Shown piece after piece: positions 3,688 to 60,800 of a stretch of DNA of 64,000 nt; positions within the stretch are counted from its first letter, which is position 1; each line of letters opens with the position of its first letter. This DNA comes from Takakia lepidozioides (taxonomy: Eukaryota; Plantae; Bryophyta). The stretch covers positions 14,260,001-14,324,000 of the forward strand of contig CM060732.1 in NCBI GenBank assembly GCA_030704615.1, written 5' to 3'. The translations under genes and the position numbers were made by a program. The notes beneath the pieces are model-generated. The model was given only the letters and a program-made list of their open reading frames with translations. It made no database searches and was not told where the DNA came from.

Positions 3688-3689
3688 CT

Positions 3690-3701: not shown

Positions 3702-3742
3702 TTAGAGTTCAGTACGCGATCGTCCTTGGGATTGGCCTCATC

Positions 3743-20216: not shown

Positions 20217-20393
20217 GAGGTTAGCTATTTCATGATCATGAGCGGCATGAGCGGAGTAGTAAGACAATCGGTTTTCATGAGCAGAAGTACAAATTTCGAA
20301 AATAAAAAACAATAAAAAACATTAATTTAATGCAATGTGTCAGGAAAAACAAATATATTATTCGGCCCCTTGAAGGGAAAATTGTAGTTTTGA
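20217..20393 (-). mobile_element. Inverted right terminus of family A
   Basis: GAGGTTAGCTATTTCATGA at 20217. Reverse complement of about 57665-57851. Confidence 0.8.
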
Positions 20394-23539: not shown

Positions 23540-24170
23540 AAAACCGGAAATGCGGCGCCACATTTCCATGTCGGAACGGAAAAACAGAAATGTGGCAACT
23601 GCAAATACATCGTTTTGGAAATGCGGCACGACATTTCCATAACCGGGGCAGGAACAATTTTCTGTTTCCTGTTTTGGACATCAGAAATCGTTCGGCCGAA
23701 CTAAAATGCGGTGCCGCATTTCCGTTTTCGACATGGAAGTTTTGCCCATTTCCAGCTTCTTCCATTGAGGTAAATGGAAATGCGGCGCCGCATTCTGGGG
23801 TCGAACACGTTATTCCCATGCCGGACATGGAAATGTGGTGCCGCATTTCCATTTTGGAGATGGATTTTTGTCCAATTCCAGACACTTCGCCGGAAATGCG
23901 GCACCGCATTCCATTGTCCAATATGAAATGTTGATGACGGATATAGAAATGTCGTGCCGCATTTCCAGAATGGACATGGACATGCATTGGCGATTGGACA
24001 TGCTTGGACAATTGAAGATCGAATATGGAAATGCGGTGCCGCATTTCGAATTCGAAGTATGGAAATGCCTTGTCAAGAAAGGAAATGCGGTACCGCATTT
24101 CCGTTACGACCAGAACGGAGGAGTGGGAGCTGCCGGAAATTGCTGCAAATGCGGTGCCGCATTTCCGAGC
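23540..24170. repeat. Array of GGAAATGCGGCGCCGCATTTCC-type palindromes
   Basis: About a dozen variably decayed copies (e.g. 23546, 23703, 23776, 23892, 24027, 24081, 24147) with unique spacers. The same motif occurs at 5325, 5466 and 20575. Confidence 0.85.
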
Positions 24171-24394
24171 TTGGGCATGTACATGTTTCCGTTTACTCAT
24201 AGATGGATTTCCTTGACCTCAGGACTATGATATCGCTGACTCTGATATATTCATGTGGACAGACACATTGTAGAAATGAGACCACAAATTCTAAACAGTG
24301 GGCCAATAACAGCAGTTCATTGAATACAATGAAACACAGCACACAGAAGTGAGGGACGATGGGTTGTTTTATTGATCGAACACGGTGTCTCACA

Positions 24395-36698: not shown

Positions 36699-37955
36699 GG
36701 GGGCTGCTATTTCATGAGCCATGAGCCATGAGCATAGTCGTAAGTGTCGGAGAAAACATGTGCAAGAATTTTTCCCGGAAATGATTGTCCACGGGAATAG
36801 GGTTGAGGGTGTCACGGTCATAAGGGGAGAAGGACCTCCCAATGAAGGAGGTTCGGCAATGTTTTTTAGAATTACATATTGAAAGGCAATGTTTTGCGAA
36901 TGGTAGGGTGGTACTGCTCTGTACAATGGGGCGTCTACTGTGCTGATTATGCAAACAAATCTTTAGCCCTGTGCCTTCTGAATACAAGTCACGTTGTCAA
37001 TGGGACTTTGACTGCTCTGAGAACTAGCTCATGAGTCATCGGGCTCCTCCAGGTAAACTGGATTGCAGCCGTTGTACCGCCCCTGTTGATGTTCACCACA
37101 ATGTCGTGCCCTTCAATCATACCACCATCGAATATGGAAAGCTTCACGTTTTCGTCGTCCACACCAATGCGAATGTCCCCATACAATGGAGAAGAGGAGC
37201 ACACTCCTTCAGGAGTATAAGTCTCTCCGATGGAGTCCACCCACGTCCACTGGCAGCAGTTCCACCGCAACAACATAGCAGTGCGCATTCTTCTGCATGG
37301 GTGCCCGTCGTAGCTGGGAAAATCGGAATCAAGGATGCGCAGGAGCCACAGACTCCTCAGACCAAGATCGTCACCCCGCTCGAAGGCGTACTGGCCTGGG
37401 ATATACTCAAAAGCGGACAATGTTTCCACATTCGAACCAGTATCTTCTGTGTAATCTGTGTACCAGATAACGATGTCTCCCGATGTGGCCGAATACATTG
37501 CATAATCGAAGCCTCCATAAGGGCAGTTGTCCTGGTTCCGCAAGCACGACATCCTTGCAAAGGAGGCGACGAGCATTATTACCCGCACAGGCAGCTGCAT
37601 CGGCACCACCTATCGTGTCCCCTATTGCAATCCTTGCACCACCTATTTTTGTGGGGGCTTGTGATGGACCAGGTGAGGATCCCTACTTGCTTTGAATTCT
37701 CTTGGCGTGTTTGTTGCCGATGACAATGACCTTGCAGACAACAAAGCCATTTGATTTTTGAAATGATGAGAAGCGGAAGAGCAGTGCGGGCTCCAATAAT
37801 GGAGCATCTGGGTCCCACGTACCCACCAATCATCGTGTAACATGTTCATCACGCCAGCGGTGGATGAACCGCTAACTCTTTCTCATCCACGGGGAATAGT
37901 TTGTCATCTGCCACCGAAGTCCATCCCCCCGGATGGAAATTCGGCGCCGCATTTA
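36699..37955. mobile_element. Left end of a related MULE carrying the hypothetical gene
   Basis: GGGGGCTGCTATTTCATGAGC is identical to 44307, followed by CATGAGC repeats and CCACGGGAATAGGGTT (cf. 44378). A GGAAATTCGGCGCCG motif lies at about 37935. Confidence 0.75.
36989..37552 (-). CDS. Hypothetical protein, about 187 aa, transposon-associated
   Basis: Open ORF from MSCLRNQDNCPY. Paralogue of 24395-25021. Confidence 0.7.
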   Translation of the reverse strand: MSCLRNQDNCPYGGFDYAMYSATSGDIVIWYTDYTEDTGSNVETLSAFEYIPGQYAFERGDDLGLRSLWLLRILDSDFPSYDGHPCRRMRTAMLLRWNCCQWTWVDSIGETYTPEGVCSSSPLYGDIRIGVDDENVKLSIFDGGMIEGHDIVVNINRGGTTAAIQFTWRSPMTHELVLRAVKVPLTT

Positions 37956-38134
37956 CATCGAAGGGGAGATGGACTTCGTCGTCTCGAGTGGCTATAGGCC
38001 CATCTGGCACTCATGGCCCTAGTTTGCATGGCATGGAAGGAAACTAAAACGGCTACATTCATGGACAAGCCAATCTTCATCAGTGCAGGTTCCGGTAAGG
38101 GGGAAATTTAAATATGCCCTGGAGTGTGAGTGAG

Positions 38135-38460
38135 TGTAGTGTTAGAAAAGAAGGGCATAAATCCCTTCTGTCTAATTCTAATCTAGTTCTTAGTGAAAGG
38201 TAAGCTTGCTAGCCTAAGACACAAGCCCTTAATCAGTGACTCTACACCATTCATGATCAGAGACCAAATGAACCTCATCCATGCCGCAGCGGAAGAGAAA
38301 ACATGGATGGGACTGGGAAGTTTCTCCCTTTCATGACTTGGTACATCTAAGTAGGGTTTGCATGCACCAATAAGGTTGGTGTGATGATTTCAGTCTTACA
38401 AACAGATCACTATCAGGGTGAATACACAACCTATGAAGTGATTCCCTTGCACGGATAATA
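38135..38460 (-). mobile_element. Diverged fragment of the TGTAGTGT-family element (right end, reversed)
   Basis: TGTAGTGTTAGAAAAGAAGGG...CCCTTCTGT.TAATTCTAAT and CCTCATCCA.GCCGCAGCGGAAG match the reverse complement of 17430-17635. Confidence 0.7.
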
Positions 38461-38462
38461 CT

Positions 38463-39603
38463 TTGAACCCTTCCTTGAACAAAATCGGCGTCGGAGTCAC
38501 TCTCTTGGGTCCCCTCCTGCGCCTCCTCCGATGCCCCGATGGTTTTCTTCTTTTTGAGCCACGAGTTCACCGACCAGCCGAACGCGGACAAAGCAGCAAT
38601 GCGCCTTCTGTACAGGTACATACGCGCTGCCTTTCTTTCAAGTCCTGGCATTGCAGGATGTTAGAGGCCTCAAGTGGTGTTAGGGAAAATGGCGCCGAAT
38701 TTCCAGTCAGGGCTCCGAAAATGGCTAAGTCCCTAGACTGGCTGGCCCGGAACTGGAAATTCGGCGCCATTTTCCAGTTCCAGGCCCTATTGCCGTTCAG
38801 GGACTTACCCATTTTCGGCCCAAGTCCCTAGACTGGCTGGCCCTGAAGTGGAAATTCGGCGCCATATTCCAGTTTTAGGCCCTATTGCCGTTCAGGGAGT
38901 TAGCCATTTTCGGCCTAAGTCCCTAGTGTGGCTGGCCCGGAACTGGAAATTCGGCGCCGTTTTCCAGTTCTAGGCCCTATTGCCGTCCAGGGACTTAGCC
39001 ATTTTTGGGCTAAGTCCCTAGACTGGCTGGCCCGGAACTGGAAATTCGGCGCCGTTTTCCAGTTCTAGGCCCTATTGCCGTCGAGGGACTTAGCCATTTT
39101 CGGGCTAAGTCCCTAGACTGGGTGGCCCTGAAGTGGAAATTCGGCGCCATATTCCAGTTGTAGGCCCTATTGCCGTTCAGAGACTTAGCCATTTTCGGAC
39201 CTCATTGTGTTTTTCATGAATGCAGGTACAGTAAGTTCTCGCTTTTGGAGAAAGGTCATCTGTCTTTCGAGCCACCATTCTTCCTGGCATGGAGGAACCC
39301 TGGGGCTGACTCCATGTACACTGACGATATTGTGAAGGAGCGGCATCTGGAACATTTGCGTGATTGCCCTTGGTATGTGGACCTTCCGCCCGGCTCGCTC
39401 GACCCATCCGAGTTTCAATTGAAGCTGGATGCTGAATTCCGACGAAACCGGGCTCCGCTGCCTCCGTTGGGTGCAAAAGAGGCAAAAGCGCTTGCGAACT
39501 CCAGGAAAGCGGCAGAGCTTGCTCAGGCAGGAATTCAGGAGAAATTGCATGAGAAGAGTAAAGGTCAAAGGAAAAGGACAAGGAAACAGGTGACTGCAGT
39601 AAC
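38463..39603. pseudogene. Rearranged fragment of the family A cargo gene including the intronic repeat array
   Basis: 38463-38555 matches 46414-46495 directly. 38556-39603 matches 47805-46497 inverted. Confidence 0.85.
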
Positions 39604-39604
39604 A

Positions 39605-40190
39605 ACAATTTATGGTGCTGAGTCTGCATCTCTGGTTTGATGTCCGACTTTGTATGTTTTTCCAGAGATTGTGTCCAATGGAATAGACATGTACGCTCTC
39701 TTCCTGGCATAGGCACTTTTGGGTCGCCCGATCCGAAGACAATACGAACAGCATTGAAATTTGCTTGAGCACTATCCGCCATGAAACCTGCAAAATTTGG
39801 AGATGGCAGCCCATGGCAGCCCATGACACGTATCAGGGAATTCCACATGAGCTTCTGGGATTCCGTATCCTCGGATTGCATGTCACAAACTGCAATTGTC
39901 ATAACTCGTTGGTACACTGGATCGTAGACATGACAAGCCATTGTCGTCCAATCCTTCACTCGTTTCACATGATCAAACATAAGAAAACAATTCTGCAAGT
40001 CCCCAGTCTTCTGTATCCGCTTCACGAGGCTAACCCCACTACCCTCCCCAACAGTCGACATTTTGAAAAGAAAAACTTTGATGGCACCTTGACCTGGGAA
40101 TACATTGTCCTGGATGTAATCATACTTGCTCACTCGTTTCAATTCCAAAATATTGTCTATGTAGCCTCTGACCACACAACCACCCGAGGA
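39605..40190 (-). pseudogene. MULE transposase core, family D
   Basis: FPGQG...FKMST...LMFDHVKR...GFMADSAQAN...RERTCLFHW, homologous to the A and B transposases. Confidence 0.82.
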
Positions 40191-40823
40191 GTTAATCAGG
40201 TCGCAAAAATGCAAGTGCGTGCTATCTTGGCACCATCTCCTCATCCATCTCACTCTACTGTCATCCTGCTGGCTTGTGCATGGATTGCGGTTCAATCCAT
40301 CCGCATCCTGATTGACTAGACCGGGTCAATGTGCCACCTAAAAGAGCAGCTCCACACATGCACCACTTGCTTGGTCAACTATCCACCACAAAGTTCAGAC
40401 TACCAAGAGCATGAATAGCCAAGCATTGCCTCCCTCTCGTCATATTACATAGTTAGGGTGAAGCTATGCATACATTGAATGATGATCTCCCTTCAAGGAT
40501 TTCCCACCATATGTTCTCCAAGCCCTTCCAATGCCCTATGCTTGGCTCCACACCACCATGACTGGAAGATTTCTTCACATGCTCCCTTTCAAAACCTCTT
40601 GAGCTTCTTAGTGCTCTCCAAGTGCTTGCCCTTGTTGTCTTCAAGCCCAAGCCTATGTAGCTCTTGGCTTCTCTTCCACAACATCCACACTTTGAACTTG
40701 CTTAACCCTAGATTGATAGTGAAATGAGCACTAACAATCCTTTAGTTACTCTCCACAAGCCATGGCACACACCATTGACTCTATAATGCATACAAAAGAT
40801 TCTCAAACGGGAAGGTCAGATTA

Positions 40824-43186: not shown

Positions 43187-44581
43187 TGCTGGAAGTCTGT
43201 CTGTTGGGATATCAGTCTGTTGCACTTGTGAATTTGTCAGTCTGTTGTGTCGGAAGTCTGTTGTACTAAGTCTGTTTGACTTCTTATTTTCCCTCCGGTC
43301 AGTCTTTTGGCTTGTTCTCCCACCAGTCTGGCGAAACGTCCGTATGCTGGATAGTTCTCCTCTATGGATATCAGTCTGTTGGACTGTGCATGCATCAGTC
43401 TGTTGTGCCGCGAGTCTGTTTGCAATGGGTGTGTTCGACTTTCCTGTTCTCCCCTTATTCTCTTTTGTCTTCATTCCGCTGGCAAGGAAGTGCCTCCAAT
43501 ATGAAGCCGCTTTGCCTCAGCAAAGCGAATAGTCTGCTGGACTCTCGGCCCGATGGGAAATGAGTCTGCTACACTTGCGAGGACCGTGGATGAATTTAGT
43601 ATGATGCGATCGTTCGGTGGACGTATTCAATGCGATGACGGCGGATAGTTGGCGCCTGTGAAATCGCGCCACGTTGGCAGTGCCATGCCCGCTTTCCCCC
43701 TTCTACTTCTACTTTCTTCTCATGTTCCCTGTGCGATCGACTCCATTCTCTTCGCGCCTGTTTCTTCGCACAGTTTTGCATTGTTTTGTTTTCCTCTTTG
43801 CGTTTCCATCACCGTAACGAAAGACGACCATTCTTCCCCAGGTGTGGAGAGTCGCGGTGAGCCGCGAAGCGTCGCAAACACGCTCGCCTTCGTAACAACT
43901 CGAAGTTCATCGGTTCGGTGAGGTTCTCACTTGCTGCGGTGTTTCCATTCCATTCTGTGTCCTCTTCTTGCTTAGGGTGAGTCTTTTCATAGGACTTCTA
44001 TCTGTCGTTCTGTCGCTCATTGTCCTTGCACCTTCGTTTCATTCTGCAGCGATGGAGGATGCTCGTGAAAAGGGTGCAGCGGACTGGGTGGATTTTGTGC
44101 ACCAAACCAGACTAAAGAAGGAGTGAAGGTACTGGTACTCACCAGACGAGTTTGATCATAAAATAGTGGAAGCATTTGTAGACCTCCGCGCCCGGAAGCC
44201 CAAAAACTCGAATTGGCAGAAGGACAAGCTCTTCTGTCCCTTCTGTGAAGAGGTAATCAAGGACAAAATCCAACTAAATCAGCATTGTGTTGACACGGGT
44301 TGCAAGGGGGGCTGCTATTTCATGAGCGGCATGAGCATGAGTGGAAAAAAAAAAAGCATGAGCAGACCATTGTGAGTCCACGGAAATAGGGTTAGGAGGC
44401 ACGGAAATAGGGTCATGTGAAGTTGGAATGTGGCACCAGTGGACTTGAAATGCAACATTTTATTGCAAATTTTGTGGCAAGCCACGTCTATACAAGTGTG
44501 TTCTAACTGTCATAGTCGGAATGGGCACTACTCTCCTACACCCTCCGAGGAACTTGCCCCACCTTCTTCCTCACCCCCCCC

Positions 44582-47500
44582 TCATCCCTCGTCCTCCGAG
44601 CTCTGTGATGCATCAGTTCCACTATGCCTCTCAAAAATCCCGTCCTCTCCTTGGGGGACTGTCCACCTCACCTCCTGGGAATCTTCTGCGTCTTCTCCCC
44701 CACTTTCCTCAGCAGAATCCAACACAAATCTACGAGCCTGACGGGCTCTAATAGCTGCTGCCTCCTCCCTCATCTTCATTTTCTTGAGGCTTGCCTTGTC
44801 TAAAATCTGCTGTACACGACTACGTTCGGAACACCTCCTAATGGACACCGAAGCAAGCCGGGCAACATAAGTAGGAAGGATGTACTCCCTTTCTGGACTA
44901 GGCATGAAATCCCCCCTGGCAAAAAAAGGCACGTTCCTCCTGCCCATGAACTCCGGTGTAGACGTCCCTTCGGCAGTACTTGGCATCCTACAGTAAGAAC
45001 AAATCCACTTCAAGAATGTCAATACCAGCACAACCAGAAAGGGTTTTCAATGAAATAAGAGAGCGGAGGGAGGTGCCTCACAAAATCTGGAGGCAACTTA
45101 CAATGCCACCACTCACTCGTAAACCGGGGGCTCCTCGGGCTCGATCCCAACTTCCTCCCCCTGCTCCTTCTCGGATTTTTCCTCATCCTCCGAGGATGCC
45201 TCTTCCTCTTTCGGCAGACGTTCAGCAGTTGCAAGTTCCGAGTTGTGGAGGGCAGTATCTGGCTCGAAGGCGAACACATGCCTGTCGGACAACGTCCCTG
45301 CCCACATTGAAGCACCTAAGGAACAAAGCGGGCGGTTAATAGCTTGCGGCATGCAATTACAATCGGGCCAGGGGACAAACTGAGCACGTGAAGGCTTACC
45401 CGTGCCGCATGTGAGATCCAGAATCCGCCCTTGGACATCCGAGCACGTCTCCATGAGGGTTTGGATGAAAGCAGGGCTCCGGGTCCGGCTGTACCGCCAC
45501 GGTTTGCCTGTCTTTGTGTCCTTCGGCATACTGGAGTGGGGCACATAGTTGTAGAGGACATCGTAGGTTACAGGGTCCATAGCGGCATCAACAAGACGAC
45601 CGTTGTTGCGGAATTTGAACGTAGACCCTCTCTTCACAAAGCAATATGCCTCAAACACCAATGTCTGCACATCCAACAAAGAAGGGATCAACTCCAGGGT
45701 CTACTTAACATACACCACAATATGAGGTGAATGCAAAAGATTGATAACTTACACTTTGGCCCTCTGTTCGCAACCCCTGCGTACTGATGCATAACCATTT
45801 TCTGAGGAGGACCGGGGTGACACTTTTCGGTGTCCACCTTGCCACCGCAGTCTCTGTGGTCTTCCCTCTCGGGCAAGGACAACCACACATCCACCGTCAT
45901 CCAGAAGCATCCCCGCCAGCCCAAACCTGGCTTTCCAGTAGTCCTCAGTAAACCTGTTCCAGGTGGGCACACCATCCAGGCCCTCCAGCAGCTCCCCATC
46001 TGGAATGTCGAGGAGAATCATGTCGCAAGCTCTCTCCACCTCAACCCCCCCCCGAGTGCTCTTGCAATTCGTGCTCACAGCCGTGAAGAATTCCATCATA
46101 GCTTCAAAACCAGGGGTGTCTTTAGGCTCTGTACCGCCAGCCCTCTTCTTGGCTTTCCCCTTCTGCTCTGCCAGAGACTTGTTGTGTGCCACCTTCTTCG
46201 CCCTGGCAGCGAGAGCGTCAAGGAAGCTCTCATTGACGCATTGGATGATGGTTGGAGGTTCTAGCTTTGGCCTGTGCGTAAACGTCACCGCCGAATACCG
46301 CCGTGTAGGCTCGCCCTCAAATGCCAACTTCTTGGCAGAGCCAGTCCCACTCCGAACTGACTTGGGAACCCGGACGACGGTGACTGGGTAGGAGCAACAG
46401 CAGTCGCAGGACCTTGAACAAAGTCGTCGTCCGAGTCACTCTCTTGGGTCCCCTCCTGCGCCTCCTCCGATGCCCCGATGGTTTTCTTCTTTTTGGGTGT
46501 TACTGCACTCACCTGTTTCCTTGTCCTTTTCCTTTGGCCTTTACTCTTCTCATGCAATTTCTCCTGAATTCCTGCCTGAGCAAGCTCTGCCGCTTTCCTG
46601 GAGTTCGCAAGCGCTTTTGCCTCTTTTGCACCCAACGGAGGCAGCGGAGCCCGGTTTTGTCGGAATTCAGCATCCAGCTTCAATTGAAACTCGGATGGGT
46701 CGAGCGAGCCGGGCGGAAGGTCCACATACCAAGGGCAATCACGCAAATGTTCCAGATGCCACTCCTTCACAATATCGTCAGTGTACATGGAGTCAGCCCC
46801 AGGGTTCCTCCATGCCAGGAAGAATGGTGGCTCGAAAGACAATGACCTTTCTCCAAAAGGGAGAACTTGCAGTACCTGCATTCATAAAAAACACAATGAG
46901 GTCCCTGAAATGCATATTCGGCACCATTTTCCCAGGTTGGGGCGGATGTGAGTGGGCCTAGAAATGGAAAAATGGCGCCGAATTTCGGTTTTCGGTGACT
47001 GCCACCCTAGGGACTTAGCCATCTTGGGAGCCCTGAAATGGAAATTCGGCGCCATTTTTCCCGGTTTGGCCCGAAGATGGCTGTCCCAGAACCGCAATAG
47101 GGCCTAGAACTGGAAAAATGGCGCCGAATTTCCAGTTCAGGTCCAGCCACCCTAGGGACTTAGCCCGAAAATGGCTAAGTCCCTGAACGGCAATAGGGCC
47201 TGGAACTGGAAAATGGCGCCGAATTTCCAGTTCAGGGCCAGCCAGCCTAGGGACTTAGCCCGAAAATGGCTAAGTCCCTGAACGGCAATAGGGCCTGGAA
47301 CTGGAAAATGGCGCCGAATTTCCAGTTCAGGGCCAGCCAGTCTAGGGACTTAGCCCGAAAATGGCTAAGTCCCTGAACGGCAATAGGGCCTCGAACTGGA
47401 AAATGGCGCCGAATTCCCAGTTCCGGGCCAGCCACCCTAGGGACTTAGCCCGAAAATGGCTAAGTCCCTGAACGGCAATAGGGCCTGGAACTGGAAAATG

Positions 47501-50390
47501 GCGCCGAATTTCCAGTTCAGGGCCAGCCAGTCTAGGGACTTAGCCCGAAAATGGCCAAGTCCCTGAACGGCAATAGGGCCTACAACTGGAAAATGGCGCC
47601 GAATTTCCAGTTCAGGGCCAGCCAGTCTAGGGACTTAGCCATTTTCGGAGCCCTGACTGGAAATTCGGCGCCATTTTCCCTAACACCACATGAGGCCTCT
47701 AACATCCTGAAATGCAAGGACTTGAAAGAAAGGCAGCGCGTATGTACCTGTACAGAAGGGGCATTGCTGCTTTGTCCGCGTTCGGCTGGTCGGTGAACTC
47801 GTGGCTCCGGCGAGCATCTGCTATCTCCCAAAGAATAGGTTGGTTTTGTAGAGCAGAAAGTACCTCGTCACATAGTCACGTAGGCTCTCTGCTGCAGGAG
47901 ATATCTCCATCTTGAACTGATGTGCTTGTGTGTCCAGCTGCTCTTGTGCATTCGTCGTCACCTGTGGAGATTCTCCATCAGATCGCTTTCATGAAAAAAT
48001 ACAATGAATCCACCCCTACTAGAGTAGAAGCCCCAAACGAAGCGTGGGGAAGTACCTGAAACCACCATGTCATGCGGTTCATCCACATGTCGAATGTGGG
48101 GTCAGAGAGTTTGTCCGGTTTGGGGAAGCTCCACATGTCCCTGGTACTTTGGGAACCATTCCAGATTTGGAGCCACCGGGTCTGTCCAACCACCCAGCAT
48201 ATTCGTAAGCGCCAAACACCACAAAAAGGAGTTGTTGCCACCACAATTTGGTTAAGAATGTATCACCTTTTCTGTTGCATCCACACAGGATGTGGCTAGA
48301 CGATGGAGCTTCTCCAATGTCATCGTGGGCTTCAGAGCGCGAGAGTAGTGCTTCCCCACCTCCACCAGAAAGTCGGCACCAAGGGCGAGATCAGCTATGG
48401 CCACGTACTTTACCATCCGCGACTTGTACTTTATGCGGGCCCTCACCTCCGCAGCTTTGACATACGATTCGAGTTCCGGGAGGGTTGGATTCTTCTCCTC
48501 TGACTCCATGTAGAACCTCCGCGCATGTGCCAAATCCTGCTGTATTTTCGTCTGTCAAGAATGCGCACATAAGATTAGAGATCCTGCTCAACACAATTAT
48601 TCTATTGGGGGAGGAGATTAGAAATCACGGTGAAGACCCTTTTTCTATTGGGGGAGGAGAGACAGATTAGCTCAACAAAACTGTCAGGAGCTTTACCCGA
48701 AATATGTAGTCCACCATGGCGTCGACGCTCAGCCTATACCAGGTTCTGTCTGCCTTTGCCTCCGACTTGCGCAGGAGGTCGGCACTGAGGGAATTGGCAA
48801 ACTCTTGCACCCCTGCTTCCCAACATCCTTCACTCGGAAGAGCATATGGGACAAGTTGGTGGCAATGAAGGCATTCTCAGTCACCCTGCAGTGCCACATT
48901 TCCATCAAACAATACTCAAATGGGAATTTCCATCATATATGAGGATTTGCAATGAAATGACTTCCAAATTCAAAGTCCAAAAGCGAGAGGGGTTGTAGCT
49001 TACGAGTTGATGTCGGCCATTGCAGCTTTGAGAAGACTGCGATCTTTGGGCCCCGCAACCTTCAGCACAACACAATCCACGGCGAAATGCCAATCGAGGT
49101 CGTTGGGGTGGGCTTGGGCAATGTACTCCATCCATGCCAGGAGGTGATGATTGCCGTCCCACACGTAGAACATCTTACCGGACAAGTGCTGGAAAAGAGG
49201 ATCACTAGCAATCAATCTCTCGAACTCCTCATTTTGCGTTTGCCAATGGGACCCCATTTGTCCACCTCATCGGAAGTGTGGGCACGGGAAGCTCCGTGGT
49301 CGTTCTCAATGGAAACGTAAAATGCGGCAGACCCCATTCGATATCCATCCCGGAAAGAGAATTTCAGCTTGTCGATATCGCCTAGGAGGGCAGGTCTCAC
49401 CACCTGCAATGACACCAAGCGACAAAGGGGAATTCGAAGCTTGGCCGGGTACACCATGCCCCCCAGCACCCTACCAATGTTGCTGTGGGTTGCCTCCAAC
49501 ATCTTGGCAGCGGCCAACTTCATATCCGCCTCAGACATGACGTCTGCTGCAGAGGGGTTTTCCGGCAGCCCAGCAGGACCGCCAAATCCAGCCTGTATGC
49601 TCCGGGTTTGGGGCCTGGGGATGTCCGGGAGGATGTCATCCTGGTCAGAAAGCTCCCTGTCGTCCTCCTCAACAGGGTCAGCCACCTGCAAAACCACCTC
49701 CAGCACTCTCCCCGTCTCTACTGCCCTCTCCCTGGCTTCACCTCGAACTCGCACAATCCGTGCTCTTTCTGGTGTTCTTTCCTCTCCTCCACTCTCCACC
49801 GTATGGGTAATTGCAGGGGCTGCTCTTGCCCGCGATGGTCTAACCAGTGTGTTACTGCCTCTCTGTGGTGTCTTGGAAGGATCCACCGTCTCTGTGCGTC
49901 CCTCACTTACATTGGCATCTGTCATTTGGGCACCCCTGGCCTCTTCAGCTGCCTTTTCTCTTTCCTCCTGGCTAGCATTCTATCTCATCTGTTCTTTTGC
50001 CCTCTCTTTTGCCCTCTCACGGGCTTTCTGTTTCTTAGTAGGGCTAGCAGCAGGGGAGCCCTCCAGGACGACCACCTTTGATTGAGGCGAACTGACACCC
50101 TCTCGCGCACTGCTCACTCCCCCCTCCGCAGCCCGTGACGGCTCTCTCGCCGATGATTGCATGTGCTTAGCTTTCTTCTTTTTCTTTGCGTGGGCGGGCC
50201 CTACTGCATGTGCATGAACAACCTCCATTGCCGGATCTGCTGTCCTCATGTCCTCACGCCCTTCACATGCCATGCCGCCTGCACCAACCTCCCCAATGCC
50301 TATTCTGTCGTACTCTCGTTGCAAGTCCTCCCGTCCACCAACAAAAGGTTTAAGTTTGCCCTCTCGCCCCAAGTTGGGCGATTCAAACAT
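44582..50390 (-). CDS. Multi-exon ParB-like / beta-class amino-methyltransferase-like fusion gene (several 1-bp frameshifts as assembled)
   Basis: RIPLCRL...VVRP...FYVWDGNHH (49144-49440); CDMILLDIPDG (about 45995-46027); RSPAFIQTLMETCSDVQGRILDLTCGT|G-ASMWAGTLSDRHVFAFEPD after splicing 45399-45316. GT-AG introns include 45752-45665 and one starting at 49003. Confidence 0.7.
46900..47680. repeat. 95-bp tandem array in a cargo-gene intron
   Basis: CAATAGGGCC recurs at 47095, 47191, 47286, 47381, 47476 and 47571. Each unit has two palindromes (AACTGGAAAATGGCGCCGAATTTCCAGTT and AGGGACTTAGCC..GGCTAAGTCCCT). Confidence 0.92.
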
Positions 50391-51179
50391 GCGATGAGTT
50401 GGAGCTATCGATGATACTACCAGCGTGCCGGGCTCGTCGTCACTCTGTCATTGACAAAAATCGTGAAAACCAACATCAGTGCAAAAACCAGCATCGCAAC
50501 CACCATAGCAACAATCGTGTAGCAAAAATGAAAACATAACAAGTTTAGGAAGTATGGAGAGCCATGCAACAACAATGAAAACAAATGCAACCATTGCCTG
50601 AGAATGACATGCACAAGCAGCCTTCTCCAGAGCTGCCGGATTTGCACACGCATTGCAAACAATCTAAGGTTCACTCAACTATCTAAAGTTCACTCATCCA
50701 GCGAAGCCAGGATGAAGATGCAAAAACAAAGCGAGGTAACAAAGCGAAAGCAAAAAAGAAATCGAACAAACCGAAAGCAGAAGTGGCTTGCCTGAGAGTA
50801 CTCGACTTCAGTTGGCGCGGGTTGTGAGCAAGACACTGGAATCTCCTGCTGGAGCTTCAGTTTGGCCATGCGAGAGATTGGCCGTCGTCCGTAGTACAGA
50901 GCTTTCAACTTCCGCCGCGGTCTGGATGTGAGGTCTCTCTCAGGAGAGCCACGCCCTTCAGGCGGCATAAGTCCCAGCCAAAAATATCTCATTTTTTTGG
51001 GTACATGCCTCGAATAGCATGTTAAGCCAACATTAGCATGAGATTTAGGGTACGTATCCAGGAAGCCATGCGTCGCCAGCCCGATGGAAAACCGACGGCG
51101 GTCGACATTTATTGCCCAACTGCGCAATTAAATGTCGGATGAAGACCTCCATGTCGGATGAAAATCGACGTAAAGAGGC

Positions 51180-53060
51180 CCGGAATTTCCAACGTAGAGG
51201 TAATTCGGAGCGTTGCACGATGGAATTCCGGCGCCGGATTTCCATCCTGCAGGTAATTCGGAGCGCAGCAGGATGGAAATTCAGCGCCGAATTTCCATCC
51301 AGCAAGGTAGGGCGGCGCTGGAAATTTCCCTCAAGCAGGTAATTCAGAAGCGGATGGATGGAAATCCGGCGCCGGATTTCCATCCGCGCAAGTAGGGCGG
51401 CGCGCCAAATTCCCCTCACGCAAGTAATTCAGAAGCGGATGGATGGAAATCCGGCGCCGGATTTCCATCCGCAAGGTTGGGCGGAGAGCGGATGGATGGA
51501 GATCCGGCGCCGAATTTCCATCCTGCATGTAATTCGAATCCCGGATGGATGGAAATCCGGCGCCGCATTTCCATCCAGCAGGTAAGTGGAATCCCGGATG
51601 GATGGAAATTCGGCGCCGGATTTCCGTCCAGCAGGTAAGTGGAATCCCGGATGGATGGAAATTCGGCGCCGAATTTCCATCCTGCGGGTAATTCTGATCT
51701 CAGAATTACCTTCCTGCAGGTAATTCTGATCGATGTATTACCTTCCTGCAGGTAATTCTCATCTCGGAATTACCTTCCTGCAGGTAATTCTGAGCGAGGA
51801 ATTACCTTCCTACCTTCATCGATAAGAATTACCTGCAGGAAGGTAATTCTCAGCGATGAAATACCTGGCGAATGGAATTTCGGCGCCGAATATCCATACG
51901 CCAGCGATCCGACTTACTTGCTGGATGGAAATTCGGCGCCGAATTTCCATCCATCCGGATTCGAATTACCTGCAGGATGGAAATGCGGCGCCGGATTTCG
52001 ATCCATCCGGGATTTCACTTACCTGCTGGATGGAAATCCATCCGGGATTCGAATTACCTGCAGGATGGAAATGCGGCGCCGGATTTCGATCCATCCGGGA
52101 TTTCACTTACCTGCTGGATGGAAATTCGGCGCCGAATTTCCATCCATCCGGGATTCCACTTACCTGCTGGATGGAAATTCGGCGCCGAATTTCCATCCAT
52201 CCGGGATTCGAATTACCTGCAGGATGGAAATGCGGCGCCGGATTTCGATCCATCCGGGATTTCACTTACCTGCTGGATGGAAATTCGGCGCCGAATTTCC
52301 ATCCATCCGGAATTCGAATTACCTGCAGGATGGAAATGCGGCGCCGGATTTCGATCCATCCGGGATTTCACTTACCTGCTGGATGGAAATTCGGCGCCGA
52401 ATTTCCATCCGGGGGATGGTCTCTGTCGGAGAGGTGCCGGCCTCTCCGCCGCTCTGTTGGATATTCGGTGCCGAATTTCCGTCCGACGGTTGAAATATGA
52501 CGGCCAGTTGCCGACCTCTCCCCCCTCCCCGACTGCATTGGAACGGCCCCGGATTGAAATTCGGTGCCGTTTTCCCATTTGGGGAGGTTTTTATGTCGGC
52601 CAGTTTTCGGTCTGACCCCCCGACAAGACTTCCTTTGGGGGGGCACGGATGGAAATTCGGCGCCGAATCTCCATCCAGGGGATGCTCTCTGTCGAACACG
52701 TGCCGACCTCTACGCCCGAGGCGACTTCATCCGGGCGTCCCCTGTTCGATATTCGGTGCCGAATTTCCGTCCGGGGGTTGAAATGTGACGGCCAAGTGGC
52801 GGCCTCTCCCCCCTCCCCGACTGCATCTGAACCGCCCCGGATGGAAATTCGGCGCCGTTTTTCCATCTGGGGATGTTTTTATGCCGGCCAGTTTTCGGCC
52901 TGACCCCCCGACACGACTTCCTTTGGGGGGCCCGGATGGAAATTCGGCGCCGAATCTCCATCCAGGGGATGTTCTCTGTCGCACACGCGCCGACCTCTGC
53001 GCCCGAGGCGACTTCATCCTGGCTTCCCCTGTTGGATATTGGGTGCCGAATTTCCATTCG
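51180..53060. repeat. Palindrome arrays between the divergent genes (~53-bp units and ~270-290-bp higher-order units)
   Basis: Dozens of GGATGGAAATTCGGCGCCGAATTTCCATCC variants, arranged as inverted arms around GAATTACC(TTCC)TGCAGGTAATTC units at about 51700-51850. Confidence 0.92.
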
Positions 53061-53439
53061 GGGGTAGTAATGTGACGGCACGGTGCCGGCTTCTCCCCTT
53101 CAGCCGTCATCATCCGGACGGCCCCCCACTTTCTGACTGCATACCGTTGGCAGTTATTGCGCAAAGACCAGGGGCCGCATTCCGGAGACAAGGTTCATTA
53201 ACACTCTGACTATGGATTTTTGAGATAGTTGGCTCCCTGGATTTGGATCAGGCTTCGTCGCTCGGACAAATCGGCATCGCATTCATTCCCATTGCTGCAT
53301 CCCCCTTCTACCAGGGAGCTTCCCCGCACGCCATCCTGGCAGTCTTGTGTGCACATCTCCCATGGCGGAAAACCCGAGCGTACTGCCCTCCTCACGAGCA
53401 TAGAGCTTCATTTCCGTGCAGAGGGGACACCTGCCGGGT

Positions 53440-56400
53440 GATGGAGAAATATCTGTGCGTTCGATACCACCTGAAACCGGGGTCGGTTTTTTTGGAGGAG
53501 GAAAGGAAGGACTCTAACGGCCTTGTTGTCGAGAGTATTGTTGTGCTCCACGATGATTTCGGCGATGGCAGGGAATGGCGAGTTCCACCATCGGACAACG
53601 TCATATACAGGGCTGTTGGGGACTTCATTTGCCCGCCAAATGCACCTTCTATCCTGGCGCCTTCCACGAAACAATCCGCGAATCAGAGAGTGGCTACCTC
53701 AAAGAGAGAAGTCCGCAACGAAGTAAATCCAGAGCCGAACCCATCCATGAAGACGAGCAAGAACCGGGTTGTTCACAACCTGTCCGACTCAGACAAGGTC
53801 ATGGAAGTTCCGAGGTCGTCCTGGAGATCAGGCAAGTCCTCAATGGACGTCAGTGGAGGAGGGAGTCATATTCCCAGCACGAGCACCGCAGTTCGATCTA
53901 TTCTTGAAATTTTGCGAGGGCTTCACCTGGAGGGACACCGGTCGGAGCTGGCCGGGCTGGACTACAGCAAGTTCGCAATTAAATCGGTTACATGCCTTCC
54001 CGCCGACGTCGACGGTAATATCTTCTTTGAGTTCCCTCCTCGGGCGGACTACTCGAGGGCGTCGGAATGTTGACAGATATGGATAGAAAACATGACGGTC
54101 ATCCTTGGTGCGTTACCAAAACCACCAGCATGAAGATGCTCGATGGTGTGCGGGTGCACTATGTTGTTTGTGCGGGCGCGTTGCGGTGTTTCTCCCCAAC
54201 TTGCTTCCACTTTAAATCCAGAGGTCACAGGAACGAGACCGATTGGACAGGCACAGCTCATCAACCATTTCGAGCTCAGGAGAAGGTTCCGAACTCCACA
54301 TTTAAGTGTGCGCATTGCAAAGAACCACCACACTGCATGTCTGTTTGTAATGCCAAGCAGTTCTATGTGTTGCACCGTTTCCCTGACCTCACCCGAGCTT
54401 GCATACACGTTGGTTCCCATTGTCACAAATTGGCGAGGGGGAACTCGCGGGAGGCTGCCCACGAAGCAGAGCAGCTCGTTCAGGAGGAGGTTAAGTTGAG
54501 ACCGGGTGCCAAACCCAAACAGATACAGCTCCAAGCCGCCCATAAGATGGCATTGGCCAGAATTATGTCGGAAGACGGCTCCGATAGAGTTCCTCTCGAC
54601 GAGAAGGAAATGGAGGCATTGCTGGAGTCGGTGTCCCACGTATGTTCACCGAATGTCCGAAACCACATTGTCTCATGCAAACAGAAAATTGGGCGTGGCT
54701 CGGATATGCACTCCATTCTGGAGGTGAAGCGACGATGTGGATATGACTACATTCATGGAAGTAGGTTTCCAGGACAAGGGACTGAGGCAGATCGTTGTTT
54801 CGTATTCAAAATGTCCACGTGTGGACCTGGCAGCGGCGTCGAACTGGTCGACAGGATGACGAGTGGGAACTTGTCAAACAGTTGGGTCATGTTCGACCAT
54901 ATCAAGCGAATTACAAATCACCAGTGGGTGACAATGGGTGCACATGTCTACGACACCCACTGCAGGATGCTAATGACAATTGCTATTTGTGAGATGAAAG
55001 GAGAGGACACACAATCGGAGATGCTTCTTTGGCAGGGAATAAACGAACAGATGGCCAAGGCGGGATTGCCCCCTCCGAATTTCCGTGGTTTCATGGCGGA
55101 CAACGCACAAGCAAATTGGGCTGCCATCCGAAGGGTGTATGGGCAAGACCCCAATGTTCCCATGGAAGGCAAGGAGAGATCTTGTGGGTTCCATTTTCTG
55201 CAGAGCCTTTCGCAGTACACAACCAGGCTCGTGGCGCCAGATTTCAGAGAGGAGCACCGTTCCATGTGCCTTGCGTGGAAGCGCGCTCCCACCTTGGATG
55301 ATGCAGAGACACAGTTTGCATGCATACGGGCTTGGTGGACATCGTCAGGTGCTGTAAGGAAATCAGACGAGGGAGCAATGGTCAGTTGGCTAGCATGGTG
55401 GCATTATCGTTTCCTCCAGTTCGGCGACTATATGCGGGAGGTGAGTTGCACGAATTCGCGTCCCGTTGAATATTATTCTTGGCCATATTTGTAACTTGCT
55501 TGTAACCTGAACATGTGCTTGTGCAGGAAATGTGTCTCGACTCCGACACCGACATGCCCACGACAAACATGGCCGAATCAGTGCACTCTTCCTGGCGTGC
55601 CTCCTCTGCAGCGCATCTGGTGGACATCCTCACTGCCACAACGGAGGACATTGTGAGGTCAATTATGCAGCAATGCAGGTACAACGAGTTCTTGAAAGGG
55701 AAACAGTGGGGCTTGGGGCGGGACAGGCAGGAAATGCTGATGCGGACTGCCTCTAGATCGAAGAATCCTCGGAAGTGGGCGGCGGCCTTGCGAGAGGGCC
55801 TTCGGGACACGCCATTGCTGCGAAGAGGCCAACATTTGGAAGGAGATGTTCATACCCGTCCGGTGAGACGAAGACTTGACGAGGCACCTGGCGGAGAAGA
55901 GGATTCATGGCGAGCTGACAAGAATATTCGCACGCTCCCTCGTGGTCCGGTGATGTTGCCCGAGGAGGTCTCGTCGAGCACCGCAAGTCCTGCACGTTCA
56001 AGATCGCCATCTCCTTTGAGCACAGGGCGCGTGCCCCGGCAACATAATGAGCCATCTGTAGTAAAGCAGTACAACATTCCTATTGTGGAGGCAAGAGTGT
56101 CGGAGTCACAGTGGAGAATTGCAAGGACATTGCCGGCATTTCGAGGGAAGTGTTGCGCCATCCGGGTGGATACGAGAGCACGCTGTGGTGAGATGATTCG
56201 GAGGATCCCACACGGTGCTATACCTGCACCTTGTTTCAGCGGCAGATTTTTGACTCCCACATTTGCTCACGCCACAACTCAGACATTTTGGTTGTGTAGG
56301 CACGACATAATGACCTGTGTATTTGGCAAGCCCAAGTACGGGATTCAGCGAATGCCGGAGCCTCCGGGCGTCTGGCCTGTTGCACCGGGTTGCAGCCTCT

Positions 56401-56945
56401 CTCAGAATGAGGCGGATGCTCTATCTGCAGCAGGATTTCGAATGGTGCAACGCACAGACATCCCGGCCCATGCATTTCCGGTTCCTCAGACCCAGCCATT
56501 GCAGACTGCTCGGTCCAGTAGAGACGGATTGGACAATTTTGCACATCCCACAATGCAATTCGGAAGAGTGAAGAGACGACACCCTCCCAACAAGTTGAAT
56601 GAGACTCGGATTGCCAATGCTCTTGGGATGACTTGCACTATTCAGAGCTCCGTGGACGTACCCCCACCCGGCCTTGGGCGTGTGTATCGGATGGCAACGG
56701 CCGGCTCGGCTGTACGCGACGATGTATACACAATTACGATTGGAGTAGAACCGACTTGCAATTGTACGGACTTCTCGTTGATGGAAGCAAAGAAGGGTTC
56801 GAAGTATTATCCGTGCAAGCATCTGTATTACATTTACCTGAAGAGGTTGAGGATGAACGTGACTATTGATGACTTTATTCATGCACCGGCGTTGAGCGTG
56901 AACGAGCTGCACAAACTCCTCCTTAGGGATTCCAGAAATCATTGA
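53440..56945 (+). CDS. MULE transposase with GCM/WRKY-like zinc region, DDE core and SWIM finger (intron 55441-55526; 1-bp frameshift at about 54060)
   Basis: CAGALRC...CAHC...HVGSHCH; VMFDHIKR; FMADNA; CGFH; TNMAESVH; PTCNCTDF...PCKHLYY. GAG|GTGAGT donor and GCAG|GAA acceptor. Confidence 0.92.
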
Positions 56946-57099
56946 TGGGGCAAAGGGAATCCTCCATATGGATATTTTCAAATGCATTTTGCTGTATCAG
57001 ACTTTTTTTTGCAGTGTAATGAAATGCACCCCAAAACTCCTGGAATGAGGCAATATTCCATTCAAACTGAGATCCAACAGAAGCAGTTGTGGGCCATTT

Positions 57100-57610
57100 C
57101 TGGAAAAATGGCGCCGAATTTCTTTTTTTGGGGCCGAAAACTGGCTAAGTCCCAACATGCACTGGTACCTGTGTCTGGGAAAATGGCGCCGAATTTCTCT
57201 TTTTGGGGCCGAAAACTGGCTAAGCCCCAACATGCACTGGTACCTGTGTCTGGGAAAATGGCGCCGAATTTCTCTTTTTGGGGCCGAAAACTGGCTAAGC
57301 CCCAACATGCACTGGTACCGTGTCTGGAAAAATGGCGCCGAATTTCTCTTTTTTGGGCCGAAAACTGGCTAAGTCCCAACATGCACTGGTACAGTGTCTG
57401 GAAAATGGCGCCGAATTTCCCTATTTTGCGCCGAAAACTGGCTAAGTCCGAACATGCACTGGAAAAATGGCGCCGAATTACCTGTCATGAGGGGACCTAT
57501 AGCCGCGGAATTCGGCACCATTTTTCGCCAGAGAGACCTATTACCGCGAAATACGTCGCCGTTTTTTCAGGTTACGGACCCTATTACCGCGAAATTCGGC
57601 GCCATATTTG
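57100..57610. repeat. ~74-75-bp subterminal tandem repeats with GGCGCC core
   Basis: TGGCGCCGAATT at 57109, 57184, 57259, 57333, 57406 and 57468. Confidence 0.9.
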
Positions 57611-57851
57611 CACATGTCGCTGGGAATTGGCATGAGCGGAAGACGAAATATCATGAGCACAACTGTCAAAACTGCAATTTTCCCTTCAAGGGGCCGAATA
57701 ATATATTTGTTTTTCCTGACACACTGCATTAAATTATTATTTTTTATTGTTTTTTATTTTCGAAATTTGTACTTCTGCTCATGAAAACCGATTGTCTTAC
57801 TACTCTGCTCATGCCGCTCATGCCGCTCATGCTCATGAAATAGCAAACCTC

Positions 57852-60800
57852 GTTGCAAGGAGACTGTTGCAATGATTCCACAGGATTTCAAGCCTTGACC
57901 GATACTGAAAGAAATGTTGATTGTCAAAGAGACCACAATGCACTTGCGCGGATCAGTGCTTGACCCCCGCACTTTGGAATTAGACGAAGTGCGCGCACGG
58001 TATGGTGTCCATTGTGGTGGCCCGTCAATGGAGGATTTGCAAGTGCAGGGAACGCCGGACGCTCCCAGAAAACGTAAATTGAGTGATGGGGCCCAAAAAA
58101 AGGAGAGGCAAAAAAAGAAGAAGGCCGCAAGGTCTGCTCGCGAGGTAAGGGCAAAATCCACACAACAGACTGAACCCCGTCCTGGGCGGCAGACCCACAC
58201 CATCAGCACTGATACTGAAAGTGAATCTACTCAGGGCCTAGAAGGGGTGACAAGTCCAGTGGACATTGACTTGCCTGACCAGACTCGGCAGCAGACTCAC
58301 ACAAATATCGCGACCCATGCCATCGGTTTAGGGTCAAAACCAAAAACTCAATAGAGCACTGAAGGGCCAGTCTGCCCTGGCACATTGCGCCTCGTTGACT
58401 TTGGGCTTTTCCCACCAGAGTGCCCACCAATTGGGGATCCAGACTTCTTCCGTTATTTCTACAGAGTTGCCCAGTCAGGTCTGCTACGCACATTCATCCG
58501 ACAGGCGGAACAGAAGTGGTTGAACAGCTTTGAAGATGAAGATGACGATGATGAAGTAGAGGAGGTAATGGTCAGTCTGACCGCCCAGTCTGTTCTCTGT
58601 GCTGTTTGAGTCCATCATCGGGGTCACGTTGCCTATTCAGTCTGGTCAGTCCGCTGCGTTCTCTCCTCAGTCCGCTGGCTCACTCCGCTCGTCAGTTAGT
58701 CTGTTTTATATCGCTGCATTATTTACTGAGTCCGTTTGTCAGTCCGCTGGTCCAGTCCACTGGTATAGTCTACTGGTATAGTCTACTAGTTGCCTCCACC
58801 CTATGTACGCACGTTACAGTCTGCTAGTCTGTGAGTCCAGTCCGCTGCATGAGGTGAATATAGAGTCCACGTCCATGTTCCTGACGTCCAAGTTCTCTGT
58901 TGTGTACCAGGATGAACGTGTTTCTATTCGTAGGGCCATTCAGGCTTGGCGGATACCTAGCAATGATGCTCCTTTACAAGCGACTGCAGTGCATGCGGAA
59001 GTGGACCACGTGCGAGAGTACATATTATTGAAGTATCCTGGGTCATTTGCTGCTATAGCGGTATTACATATTCAAGACGCGTTGGGGGGGAATGCGTCTG
59101 AGACAGCCGAGTCTGCCATCCAGCAGACTCCCATTTAGTAGGCCGTCATCCAGTAGACTTCCGTTCAGCAGCCTGTCATCCAGCAGACTCCAACGGAGCA
59201 GACTCCCAACGAGCAGCCTGTCATCCTGCAGACTCCTCTCCAGGAGCCCATCATGCAGCCCATGCCAATGGGAAGTCCTGTCATCCAACAGACTGCGGAC
59301 CAGCAGACTGCCTTTCTCTCACATAGCACGGCGCTTTTAGCAGTTTGGCGATCGCCATCACCGGTAATTCGACCCGGAGCTAAAGACCTCACACTTCCCC
59401 GGCTTAGGGTGGGAGAAATTAATCCCCATTTGGATTGGCATAATGAGCTCCACCGGATTGTTGCAGACCGCCGGTGGTCATTTGTACCCTTTCATTATTC
59501 CATGGAGTTTTCTATTGAGAAAGCCAACCATGTTCTAGAAGCCGCCTCTGCTGTTGCCATTGAAGCCACAAACGACCAAAATGCGTCGCCTCTACTTGTG
59601 CAGCTGATTCTCATGGATGACCCACGGCCTGAAGACCTCAGACATATGCCTATGGCACATCCAACCTTTGGGTGCGAAGAAAGCACTTGTTCGGACTGAC
59701 TGAGGAGGACTTTGAGCGCATGGCAGCTTCCTTCCTACAACACAGATGGATGCAATTTGGCAATTTCCGCTCATACAACAAGTTGATGAAGGATCTGCAT
59801 AGTTTGAGGATGGACTTACTCCATGGAACAGACCATTCACAGAAGTTTGTGGTGGATCACGCATTGCACTGGTTTGCATTGGTGATGGAGCGAGCAGTAT
59901 TCGACATTGTTTTGCAGAATCCCAATGTCTTCAAAGTCCTGTGGTGTGGGATCTCAACTGAAGACCGCATCGGCGCCATTGCTCATCTCGATGGAGCATG
60001 GCTGTGCCGGCAAATCAAGGACATTGGCCTCATTGGAAATCTCTTGGAACCAGACTGCCCCTCAGCAAACTGTACAGCAGACCGTGCAGCAGACCGACGA
60101 ATCCAGCCAGCAGATTGCCCCTCAGCAGACTGTGCAGCACACTGGCGAACCCACTCAGTAGATGGCCGAGCAGACTATCCAGGAGACTAACAGCCAGTCT
60201 GTTTCCTGGATTGTGCAACAGACTCGGATGCACTGGCCTCACCGGGACCCTGTGGACGAATTTCTGCTGAGTTCCAACAACATGTTTTTGGATCTGCCAG
60301 TATGAGTGTTTTGACCGAGTCCACTTTTCCCCCAGGCACATTCACTGACGACATCATCAGGTCACCGGTAAAGCATTCTTATCCAGCTCCCCGTGGCCTG
60401 CCTTCTATGACCTTCCAGCTTAGTCCCGTTTTCGTGCGCTCAGTGGCGAAAGCCATAGATGAGTCTTACGTGATGACCGAACTCAATTTGGGAACACAAA
60501 ACTGTATCATAGATCTTACAGAAGAGTCTAAGGAAGCAATTGCCGGTGGGTCTTCCATACATGTTCTTGATGTTTCCCAAGTCCATGGAGATCCGAACAC
60601 CCAGCCGGCTGTCCACCAGACTGACCAGCACACTGAACAGTGGACACATGGAAGGACTGCCGAGCAACCTGTGGCGGGGCAGCATACTGTCTTCATTGAT
60701 GAGCAGACTGAACTGCAGACTAACCAGCAGACTGCACAGGTCACAGATGGAAGGACTGACCAGGATGGCTCGGAGCGGCAGACTGCACAGCTCAGCTCTG

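Follow-up and report, generated by a model that had tools for sequence, protein, structure and literature searches.

In a repeat-rich 64,000-nucleotide stretch of the moss Takakia lepidozioides (GenBank assembly GCA_030704615.1, contig CM060732.1, positions 14,260,001 to 14,324,000 of the forward strand; hereafter the window, whose own numbering is used throughout), a Mutator-like element (MULE)-like transposon carries on the minus strand a cargo gene for a fusion protein of about 1,150 residues, with a predicted ParB/sulfiredoxin (Srx)-fold front end followed by a methyltransferase-like domain. The copy in the window is a decayed pseudogene of a family whose usual form reads DGNHR in the second conserved box (Box II) of the fold, and the intact protein probably binds palindromes of its own element, as analogy with bacterial ParB suggests. 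That it would act as a self-binding, nucleotide-gated anti-silencing factor is the explanation we tentatively prefer, by analogy as well, and it may well be wrong.

The coding part of the ParB/Srx-fold domain lies at 49004..49460 within a large exon and comprises a Box I-like VVRP, the Box II DGNH(R), and a Box III-like DIN at the exon end. The peptides on which the earlier note had based its ParB-type assignment are real: KLRIPLCRLVSLQVVRP...DIDKLKFSF is read on the minus strand in the frame of the open reading frame (ORF) 49979-49215, FYVWDGNHHLLAW...AAMADINS in another frame, in the minus-strand ORF 49266-49003, and VTENAFIATNL is joined to DINS across a predicted GT-AG intron (48886..49003, minus strand) with the same end point in many homologous ORFs. 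What had been overlooked is the one-base frameshift near 49247 that separates the two halves of the domain in the window copy, and the bounds then given (48695-49450) omit the first residues of the domain and include the next helical exon. The N-terminal, low-complexity part of the exon extends over 49461..50445, with a stop at 49982-49980 and a start further 5'.

The ParB piece found 518 homologues with an E-value of at most 0.01, and 1421 clusters when 50% identity was the clustering level. Across an alignment of 108 rows, the Box II columns hold D in 98%, G in 93%, N in 100%, H in 99% and R in 87%, and PLCR, VVRP (R 96%), FYVS, AW and MHDIN (N 97%) are conserved as well; the VVRP arginine and the DIN asparagine sit at the expected Box I and Box III places, with letters that differ from those of ParB. 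A model of the intact homologue P0001, built with these 108 rows, reached a mean predicted local distance difference test (pLDDT) of 84.6, and the first 29 matches listed for it by Foldseek are all chains of the ParB/KorB/Noc/PadC/Srx/SbnI/SerK families. An exhaustive structure aligner run on 48,161 chains gave eight matches at Z≥5, all of the ParB/Srx family, among them PadC (Z 7.0, root-mean-square deviation (rmsd) 5.8 over 116), KorB (Z 7.0, rmsd 2.8 over 93) and Srx (Z 6.4, rmsd 4.1 over 88), the next unrelated match standing at Z 3.7. On the unanimity of these matches, the scores themselves being moderate, the N-terminal domain of the cargo very probably has the ParB/Srx fold, and by its model it files in that superfamily and not with canonical ParB. 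The language-model neighbours in the Atlas agree, as a lead only: beside the ParB-like domain of the Riccia sorocarpa homologue P0263 stand clusters of DUF3723 (0.95) and one of ParB_N (0.91). The earlier assignment stands on structure matches and language-model neighbours, and it found no backing in profile searches. Among the 108 members, Pfam gave weak matches to DndB (3, best E 0.025), DUF6551 (4) and also DUF1015 (3-4 of 108), an NCBIfam search yielded no significant match, and sequence searches of solved structures with the family alignments and with the transposase found no real match. Canonical ParB also has a central helix-turn-helix and a C-terminal dimerisation domain; here, the helical region after the fold has generic structure matches only, below Z 4, with no helix-turn-helix fold among the matches listed, and the element, which holds just the cargo gene and a transposase, contains no ParA ATPase.

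At the Box II arginine codon (49146-49144, minus strand), the window reads CAC (His), which the earlier note had rightly predicted to be a transition from CGC. Contigs of four sequencing runs (from at most three samples, one of them possibly the window's own source), aligned to 44000-51200, carry CGC (Arg) at nearly all depth in 4/4 runs (15232.7 of 15249.2 in X1, 408835.6 of 409322.4 in X2, 449.9 of 449.9 in X6, and 10.7 of 10.7 in X10). Furthermore, all four runs have an extra base behind 49247, and the stop at 49982-49980 as well as the frameshifts at 47829, 46841, 46377 and 45871 are absent from other copies; the listing from which these differences are taken covers 40 of 339 substitutions and 12 of 32 indels. 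From run X1 alone 51,717 contigs align, consistent with many diverged copies, although the depth gives no copy number. Cytosine losses private to the window fall in CG or CHG context in 16 of the 19 listed, against 36% expected (p 3e-5, for a selected subset). Because the CGC codon and the reading frame are restored in other copies, and because C-to-T type losses concern CG and CHG contexts, we regard the window copy as a host-methylated pseudogene, a state that the earlier note had left unmentioned, as it had the degenerate methyltransferase motif IV described below. That all frameshifts are homopolymer errors of long reads was considered and not adopted, as only about 3/10 listed indels lie in a same-letter run; the stop and the substitutions private to this copy are genuine changes of the kind that decay produces, while single indels could still be read errors. 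In the window copies, the observed/expected CpG ratio is 1.17 in the central palindrome array, 1.01 in the right array, 0.65 in the intron array and 0.61-0.84 in the genes, and the fractions of decayed CpG overlap (0.00-0.17 inside arrays, 0.04-0.18 outside).

That the ParB-like part and the methyltransferase belong to one gene, as proposed in the earlier note, is almost certain, since annotated proteins of Ceratodon and Riccia are collinear with the window. P0259 of Ceratodon purpureus (1147 aa), the sole long match, successively matches the exons of the window between 49445 and 45383, and Riccia P0263 (1207 aa) and P0236 of Adiantum nelumboides likewise unite the ParB part with methyltransferase motifs. 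In Pfam, N6_N4_Mtase (PF01555, cut-off 26.7) is passed by P0259 (30.4 bits) and P0260 (31.4), with P0263 (23.7) below, and at 17 of the 81 loci fetched, tblastn located methyltransferase pieces behind the ParB exon. A search of solved structures with the P0259 sequence gave weak matches only, to DpnA (E 0.053) and CcrM (E 1.4), and a full-length P0259 model made without an alignment was unusable (pLDDT 35.3). The gene names of P0259 and P0260, both from C. purpureus, place them on chromosomes 1G and 4G of two assemblies, as would be expected for mobile DNA, provided that the two numberings correspond.

Downstream of the ParB exon, all on the minus strand, the helical middle exons (48885-48697, about 48539-48267, about 48189-48056 and 47961-47748, together spanning 47748..48885) contain frameshifts and are collinear with P0259 residues 463-589. 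An 872-base intron (46876..47747) follows; it consists mostly of a tandem array of 95-bp units that bear asymmetric palindrome sites, and it is spliced out in the RNA-like run X10. The exon at 45753..46875 holds a conserved middle segment, a linker and the first half of the methyltransferase, with three frameshifts that other copies do not have; the second half (45114..45664) contains a motif I-like DLTCGTG (45418-45400), an intron (45399-45316) and an acidic FAFEPD strand, and a final exon lies at 44583..44988. Evidence on splicing came from the runs X10 and X14, which belong to two studies and are presumed to be RNA, and whose contigs derive from other copies. GT-AG splice joints were seen in them at 45664>45753, 46871>47744 (the 872-base intron, in X10) and 47959>48054, intron 45752-45665 being spliced in X10 and intron 48055-47962 in X14; the joints listed for the DNA runs, 15 of 68, do not include them. 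Both RNA-like runs cover the ParB exon, cover is absent between 48242 and 49139, and no RNA run is among those listed for 48000-50500. At 50621-50661, 5' of the ParB exon, 40 bases match X10 contigs at high depth, which continue into unrelated sequence.

The methyltransferase motifs follow the beta-class order, IV before I, which is kept in the window, where the motif I-like and acidic residues that bind S-adenosylmethionine (SAM) also remain. Motif IV ordinarily reads (D/N/S)-P-P-(Y/F/W), its aromatic residue presumably being needed for catalysis. The window has DIPD twice, once at 45998..46009 (minus strand) with its non-aromatic fourth residue, and elsewhere we found DTPF, DVPF, DLPT, DYPE, DIPE, DVPE, DVPR, NVPG, NIPR, DVHG and DILG. 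For comparison, the active N4-methylcytosine (4mC) enzymes of Marchantia carry TSPPY (10.1101/2021.02.12.428880). Judged from these motifs, the methyltransferase domain may be dead or changed, and its catalytic activity in this lineage appears rather doubtful.

The host element measures 13,545 bases (44307-57851) and has short, G-starting terminal inverted repeats (TIRs), the left one at 44307..44346 (plus strand) matching the right one at 57812..57851 (minus strand) in 29 of 40 bases, flanked by an 8-base target duplication at 44299-44306 and 57852-57859. Its transposase gene (53441..56945, plus strand; one intron, one frameshift near 54030, putative start) is transcribed away from the cargo gene and encodes a MULE-like DDE transposase with MFDH, FMAD, CGFH and MAESVH motifs and a C-terminal SWIM-like finger. 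MULEs are recognised by TIRs and target duplications some 8-11 bases long, together with a DDE domain containing CxxH and a C-terminal SWIM finger. In Pfam the SWIM finger stays below the cut-off (E 0.0058), and the Pfam MULE search gave no match. By these sequence features the cargo-bearing element is a MULE-like DNA transposon, and the head-to-head layout recurs, with an opposite-strand transposase homologue upstream of the cargo gene in 5 of the 81 loci (4 distinct).

Between the divergent genes, at 51229..53088, palindrome arrays contain 25 of the 27 CGG-NN-CCG sites of the element, most commonly AAATTCGGCGCCGAATTT, in perfect palindromes of up to 32 bases; the intron array and a 75-bp tandem array near the right end (57099..57604) hold 16 asymmetric versions. 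We surveyed the 81 loci, which had been fetched by the ParB protein alone and were reduced to 41 distinct ones. There, the CGG-NN-CCG core recurs with other arms (TGTCTCGGNNCCGAGACA, ACTTTCGGCACCGAAAGT and AGCATTCGGCGCCGAATGCT), such that the arms differ by family and the core is constant. Requiring the core plus at least 3 further paired bases, 13 sites were found in 9/41 loci against 0.1 in dinucleotide shuffles (maximum 1 of 20), and 11 of the 13 lie 327-681 bases upstream of the ParB exon match. Allowing for CpG decay, 27 sites appeared in 19/41 loci against 3.95 in shuffles, 23 of them within -1.5 to +3 kb, where 40% of the bases lie (p 2e-6). In a count restricted to the 16 long loci, 9 of 13 sites were in this range (p 0.002). 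A second recurring palindrome, GGGAGTCAAA-N-TTTGACTCCC, occurs in the AT-rich loci L057, L061, L062, L065 and L066, in one locus both upstream of and within the cargo gene. One of the 41 loci, L082, was the single locus among 64 candidates in prokaryotic genomes, a 4.7-kb intron-bearing contig with three palindromes in a cyanobacterial assembly, and its plant-type cargo gene is likely plant contamination. As for viral homologues, 1 locus of 7 candidates (L001) was rejected as an unrelated giant-virus gene with a short common motif.

How might such a protein work? The intact protein would bind a nucleotide, ATP or CTP, through the Box II arginine, load in this state at the CGG-NN-CCG palindromes of its element and spread locally from them, three steps suggested by analogy with ParB/parS, VirB/virS and VANC/VANDAL; the two divergent promoters of the element would thereby be kept from host silencing. 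Loading at palindromes, which the earlier note had proposed, is indirectly backed by the core that distant loci have in common. In ParB-fold proteins the GxxR arginine is required for binding of nucleoside triphosphates (NTPs), and which nucleotide is bound cannot be predicted from sequence (10.1101/2025.10.10.680097). The role of the methyltransferase domain is the least certain part of this proposal. It might write 4mC or N6-methyladenine (6mA), which is plausible for the DTPF-type Ceratodon protein, or, where the aromatic residue of motif IV is lost, it might hold SAM and cytosines while transferring methyl groups poorly, thereby blocking CG and CHG methylation by the host, for which the core, itself made of CG and CCG, would offer the target sites.

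Several observations weigh against this reading. Regarding the fold, Box III reads DIN and not EN, the best Foldseek match has E 7.7e-3 with none at E≤0.001, and a Z of 7 is within the range that the structure aligner calls common. Pfam ParB_N matched 0/108 members at E≤1 (25 of 31 families listed), and hhalign against a shallow alignment of 17 cyanobacterial ParBs gave a probability of 0.2% and E 0.36, although its alignment does set DGNHR against AGERR of ParB. In a screen, 17 of 28 purified ParB-fold fusions bound no NTP (10.1101/2025.10.10.680097). The methyltransferase exons of the window itself match none of the methyltransferase families in Pfam, 11 of the 13 distinct copies that could be read, several of them decayed, have no aromatic fourth residue in motif IV, and no contig in the RNA-like runs links the ParB exon to the next exon across intron 49003-48886. 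As to the palindromes, 22/41 distinct loci, many of them short or AT-rich, have no site even with decay allowed, a word count found no dense arrays in most decayed loci, the core motif was defined from the window and after the palindromes of the fetched loci had been viewed, and several surveyed loci come from few studies. Finally, the coding parts of the element are evidently methylated by the host, so that any protection would be partial or local.

The same material can be read in other ways. The protein might be an autorepressor that binds the palindromes and represses the divergent promoters in a nucleotide-dependent manner, like DndB or KorB, which would limit transposition. This would suit the concentration of sites just upstream of the cargo gene and between the two genes, the presence of KorB among the top fold matches, and the weak Pfam matches to DndB (3/108, best E 0.025), an ATP-dependent repressor (10.1101/2025.10.10.680097), and to DUF6551 (4/108). 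However, as the plant host already silences the element, a costly self-repressor of 1,150 residues would be harder to select in mosses, liverworts and ferns, and autorepression leaves the fused methyltransferase-like domain unexplained; we consider it unlikely. A transposition cofactor that binds the arrays and pairs or compacts the element ends for the transposase, without any silencing role, has a model in TnpA of CACTA elements, which acts on subterminal repeats. In its favour, the cargo always has a DDE transposase in cis, both in the window and at 4 other distinct loci, ParB clamps are known to spread and bridge DNA, and the right end has an array 250-750 bases away; against it, 25 of the 27 perfect sites are central and none is near the left end. 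Moreover, similar proteins accompany the unrelated transposases of Sola1, Plavaka and Zisupton (PMC12477816, 10.1101/2025.02.11.637652), as would suit a task that does not depend on the transposase. We hold the cofactor to be quite improbable.

If instead the ParB-fold part merely sensed a nucleotide and regulated an active N4C/N6A methyltransferase acting on the core (GGNNCC or CCG-containing), with no loading or sliding, the element would simply mark itself, a role already deduced for ParB-methylase fusions of phages. Such an enzyme would be at home among phage ParB_N + N6_N4_Mtase fusions, which are the P0259 neighbours with a family in the Atlas (score 0.84, a lead only), and ParB-methylase fusions are enriched in phages (10.1101/2025.10.10.680097); the conserved core is also of restriction-site size. 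Against this speak the strong conservation of Box II beside a motif IV that is degenerate in most copies, and the long family-specific arms, with perfect palindromes of up to 32 bases, which exceed the needs of a methylase, so that we hold self-marking of this kind to be distinctly unlikely. Very unlikely, in our judgement, is that the palindromes are unrelated by-products, either hairpin-prone repeats or transposase sites, with a cargo that does something else, for instance as a nuclease. The 22/41 loci that have no site and the arrays in the transposase half fit this, as does a MULE transposase reported to activate its own copies (10.64898/2026.08.24.746577), whereas the positional enrichment of sites near the cargo gene, the core kept while arms change, and the tandem inverted repeats beside the ParB-like PAG3 of red algae (10.1101/2025.02.11.637652) do not, and the nuclease-like role raised in the earlier note has no evidence at all.

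Returning to the proposed anti-silencing factor, its closest functional model is VirB, a CTP-loaded sliding anti-silencer (PMC10770331). With ParB/parS, KorB, Noc and VirB/virS the moss cargo shares the predicted fold, the GxxR motif and palindromic sites; it differs in having no ParA, in a Box III that is not EN, and in its setting of eukaryotic chromatin. From phages, ParB_N + N6_N4_Mtase fusions have the same domain order and a beta-class methyltransferase, but they are about 400-530 aa long and contain no long helical insert or introns (10.1101/2025.10.10.680097, PMC4738411), and of 270 phage records, the 20 that were listed contained no tblastn match to the ParB part. Algal adenine methylases fused to ParB-type domains have been noted, land plants being said to have few such enzymes (PMC4738411). 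Among plant transposons, VANDAL elements of Arabidopsis are Mutator-like, with the accessory protein VANC and tandem non-coding target motifs that differ between families (PMC5735166); by description, VANDAL motifs vary widely, whereas the moss-type core is kept across lineages and the moss protein adds a predicted ParB fold and a methyltransferase domain.

The nearest parallels come from algae. The Ectocarpus Sola-1 element (Sola1-1_Ec32) has on the strand opposite its transposase an 1104-residue protein, ParB-like with an N4/N6 methyltransferase, for which self-binding and self-modification were proposed (PMC12477816); compared by description, the moss element likewise has such a protein of about 1,100 aa opposite to a DDE transposase. 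In contrast, Sola1-1_Ec32 belongs to a brown alga and a Sola-1 transposase, and the accessible part of that paper makes no mention of palindromes, a target site, motif analysis or a land-plant family. In the red-algal Plavaka, PAG3 has an N-terminal ParB-like domain with adjacent tandem inverted repeats, PAG2 a PF01555 methylase, and the cassette moves between transposon types (10.1101/2025.02.11.637652); there, however, the ParB-like domain has a 2-oxoglutarate (2OG) oxygenase as its fusion partner and the methylase has a SET domain, in separate genes beside an EnSpm-type transposase. A fungal link is hinted at by DUF3723 (PF12520), a conserved cargo of Starships (10.1101/2021.12.13.472469), whose clusters are the nearest named neighbours of the Riccia P0263 ParB-like domain (score 0.95, 16/30), a lead and not an alignment, and Pfam DUF3723 matched no family member scanned. 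For P0263 residues 150-360, the Atlas neighbours also include a cnidarian cluster without a name (0.95), a hint of the family in animals.

Elsewhere in the window, a second, diverged cargo gene lies at 20400-24200 on the plus strand (about 70% DNA identity); it has no ParB half, also reads DIPD, keeps the final exon at 22.9-23.3 kb, and is interrupted by a 170-base element end at 20218-20394. Downstream of it stand palindromes with another arm, AAATGCGGNNCCGCATTT, which fits family-specific sites. Several more fragments, nested and inverted, that derive from the cargo-bearing element family and from a sister transposase (69% identity) lie in 1-20000 and 36700-40300, seven TIR ends were found in the window, and a retrotransposon gag fragment (3677-4567; Pfam Retrotrans_gag, E 3.6e-8) sits between two element ends. 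Within the transposase of the main element, a Cys/His-rich region precedes the DDE core (54031-54450) with no match in Pfam; we take it to resemble GCM-type zinc domains.

The earlier note had overrated the novelty of the gene, since ParB-like proteins with N4/N6 methyltransferases are accessory genes known from algal transposons (PMC12477816). New are the occurrence in land plants and the conserved palindrome core: as far as our searches reached, the literature yielded no land-plant description and no conserved target core, although the supplements of the Ectocarpus and Bostrychia papers may list plant homologues. The algal authors had guessed that ParB-like and methylase cargo modifies its own element, and the accessible text offers neither a target site nor a test system. 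Among seed-free land plants the family has many members, intact annotated ones such as Ceratodon KAG0631975.1 occur in a transformable moss, and a candidate binding site is at hand; the conserved core together with the intact moss homologues makes the self-modification guess directly testable. In its boldest form, which we think rather unlikely, the proposal would have land-plant MULE-like elements in moss, liverwort and fern keep one parS-like core, with arms specific to each family, on which a nucleotide-gated ParB-type clamp loads and slides along plant chromatin, dragging with it a methyltransferase-fold domain, often as a non-catalytic shield of cytosines, to undo silencing, with DUF3723 of Starships as its fungal arm. 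Testing the self-modification guess would show whether an NTP clamp of the bacterial type works in plant nuclei, or whether 4mC or 6mA is made there by a second route beside DN4MT1 of Marchantia and N4CMT of rotifers.

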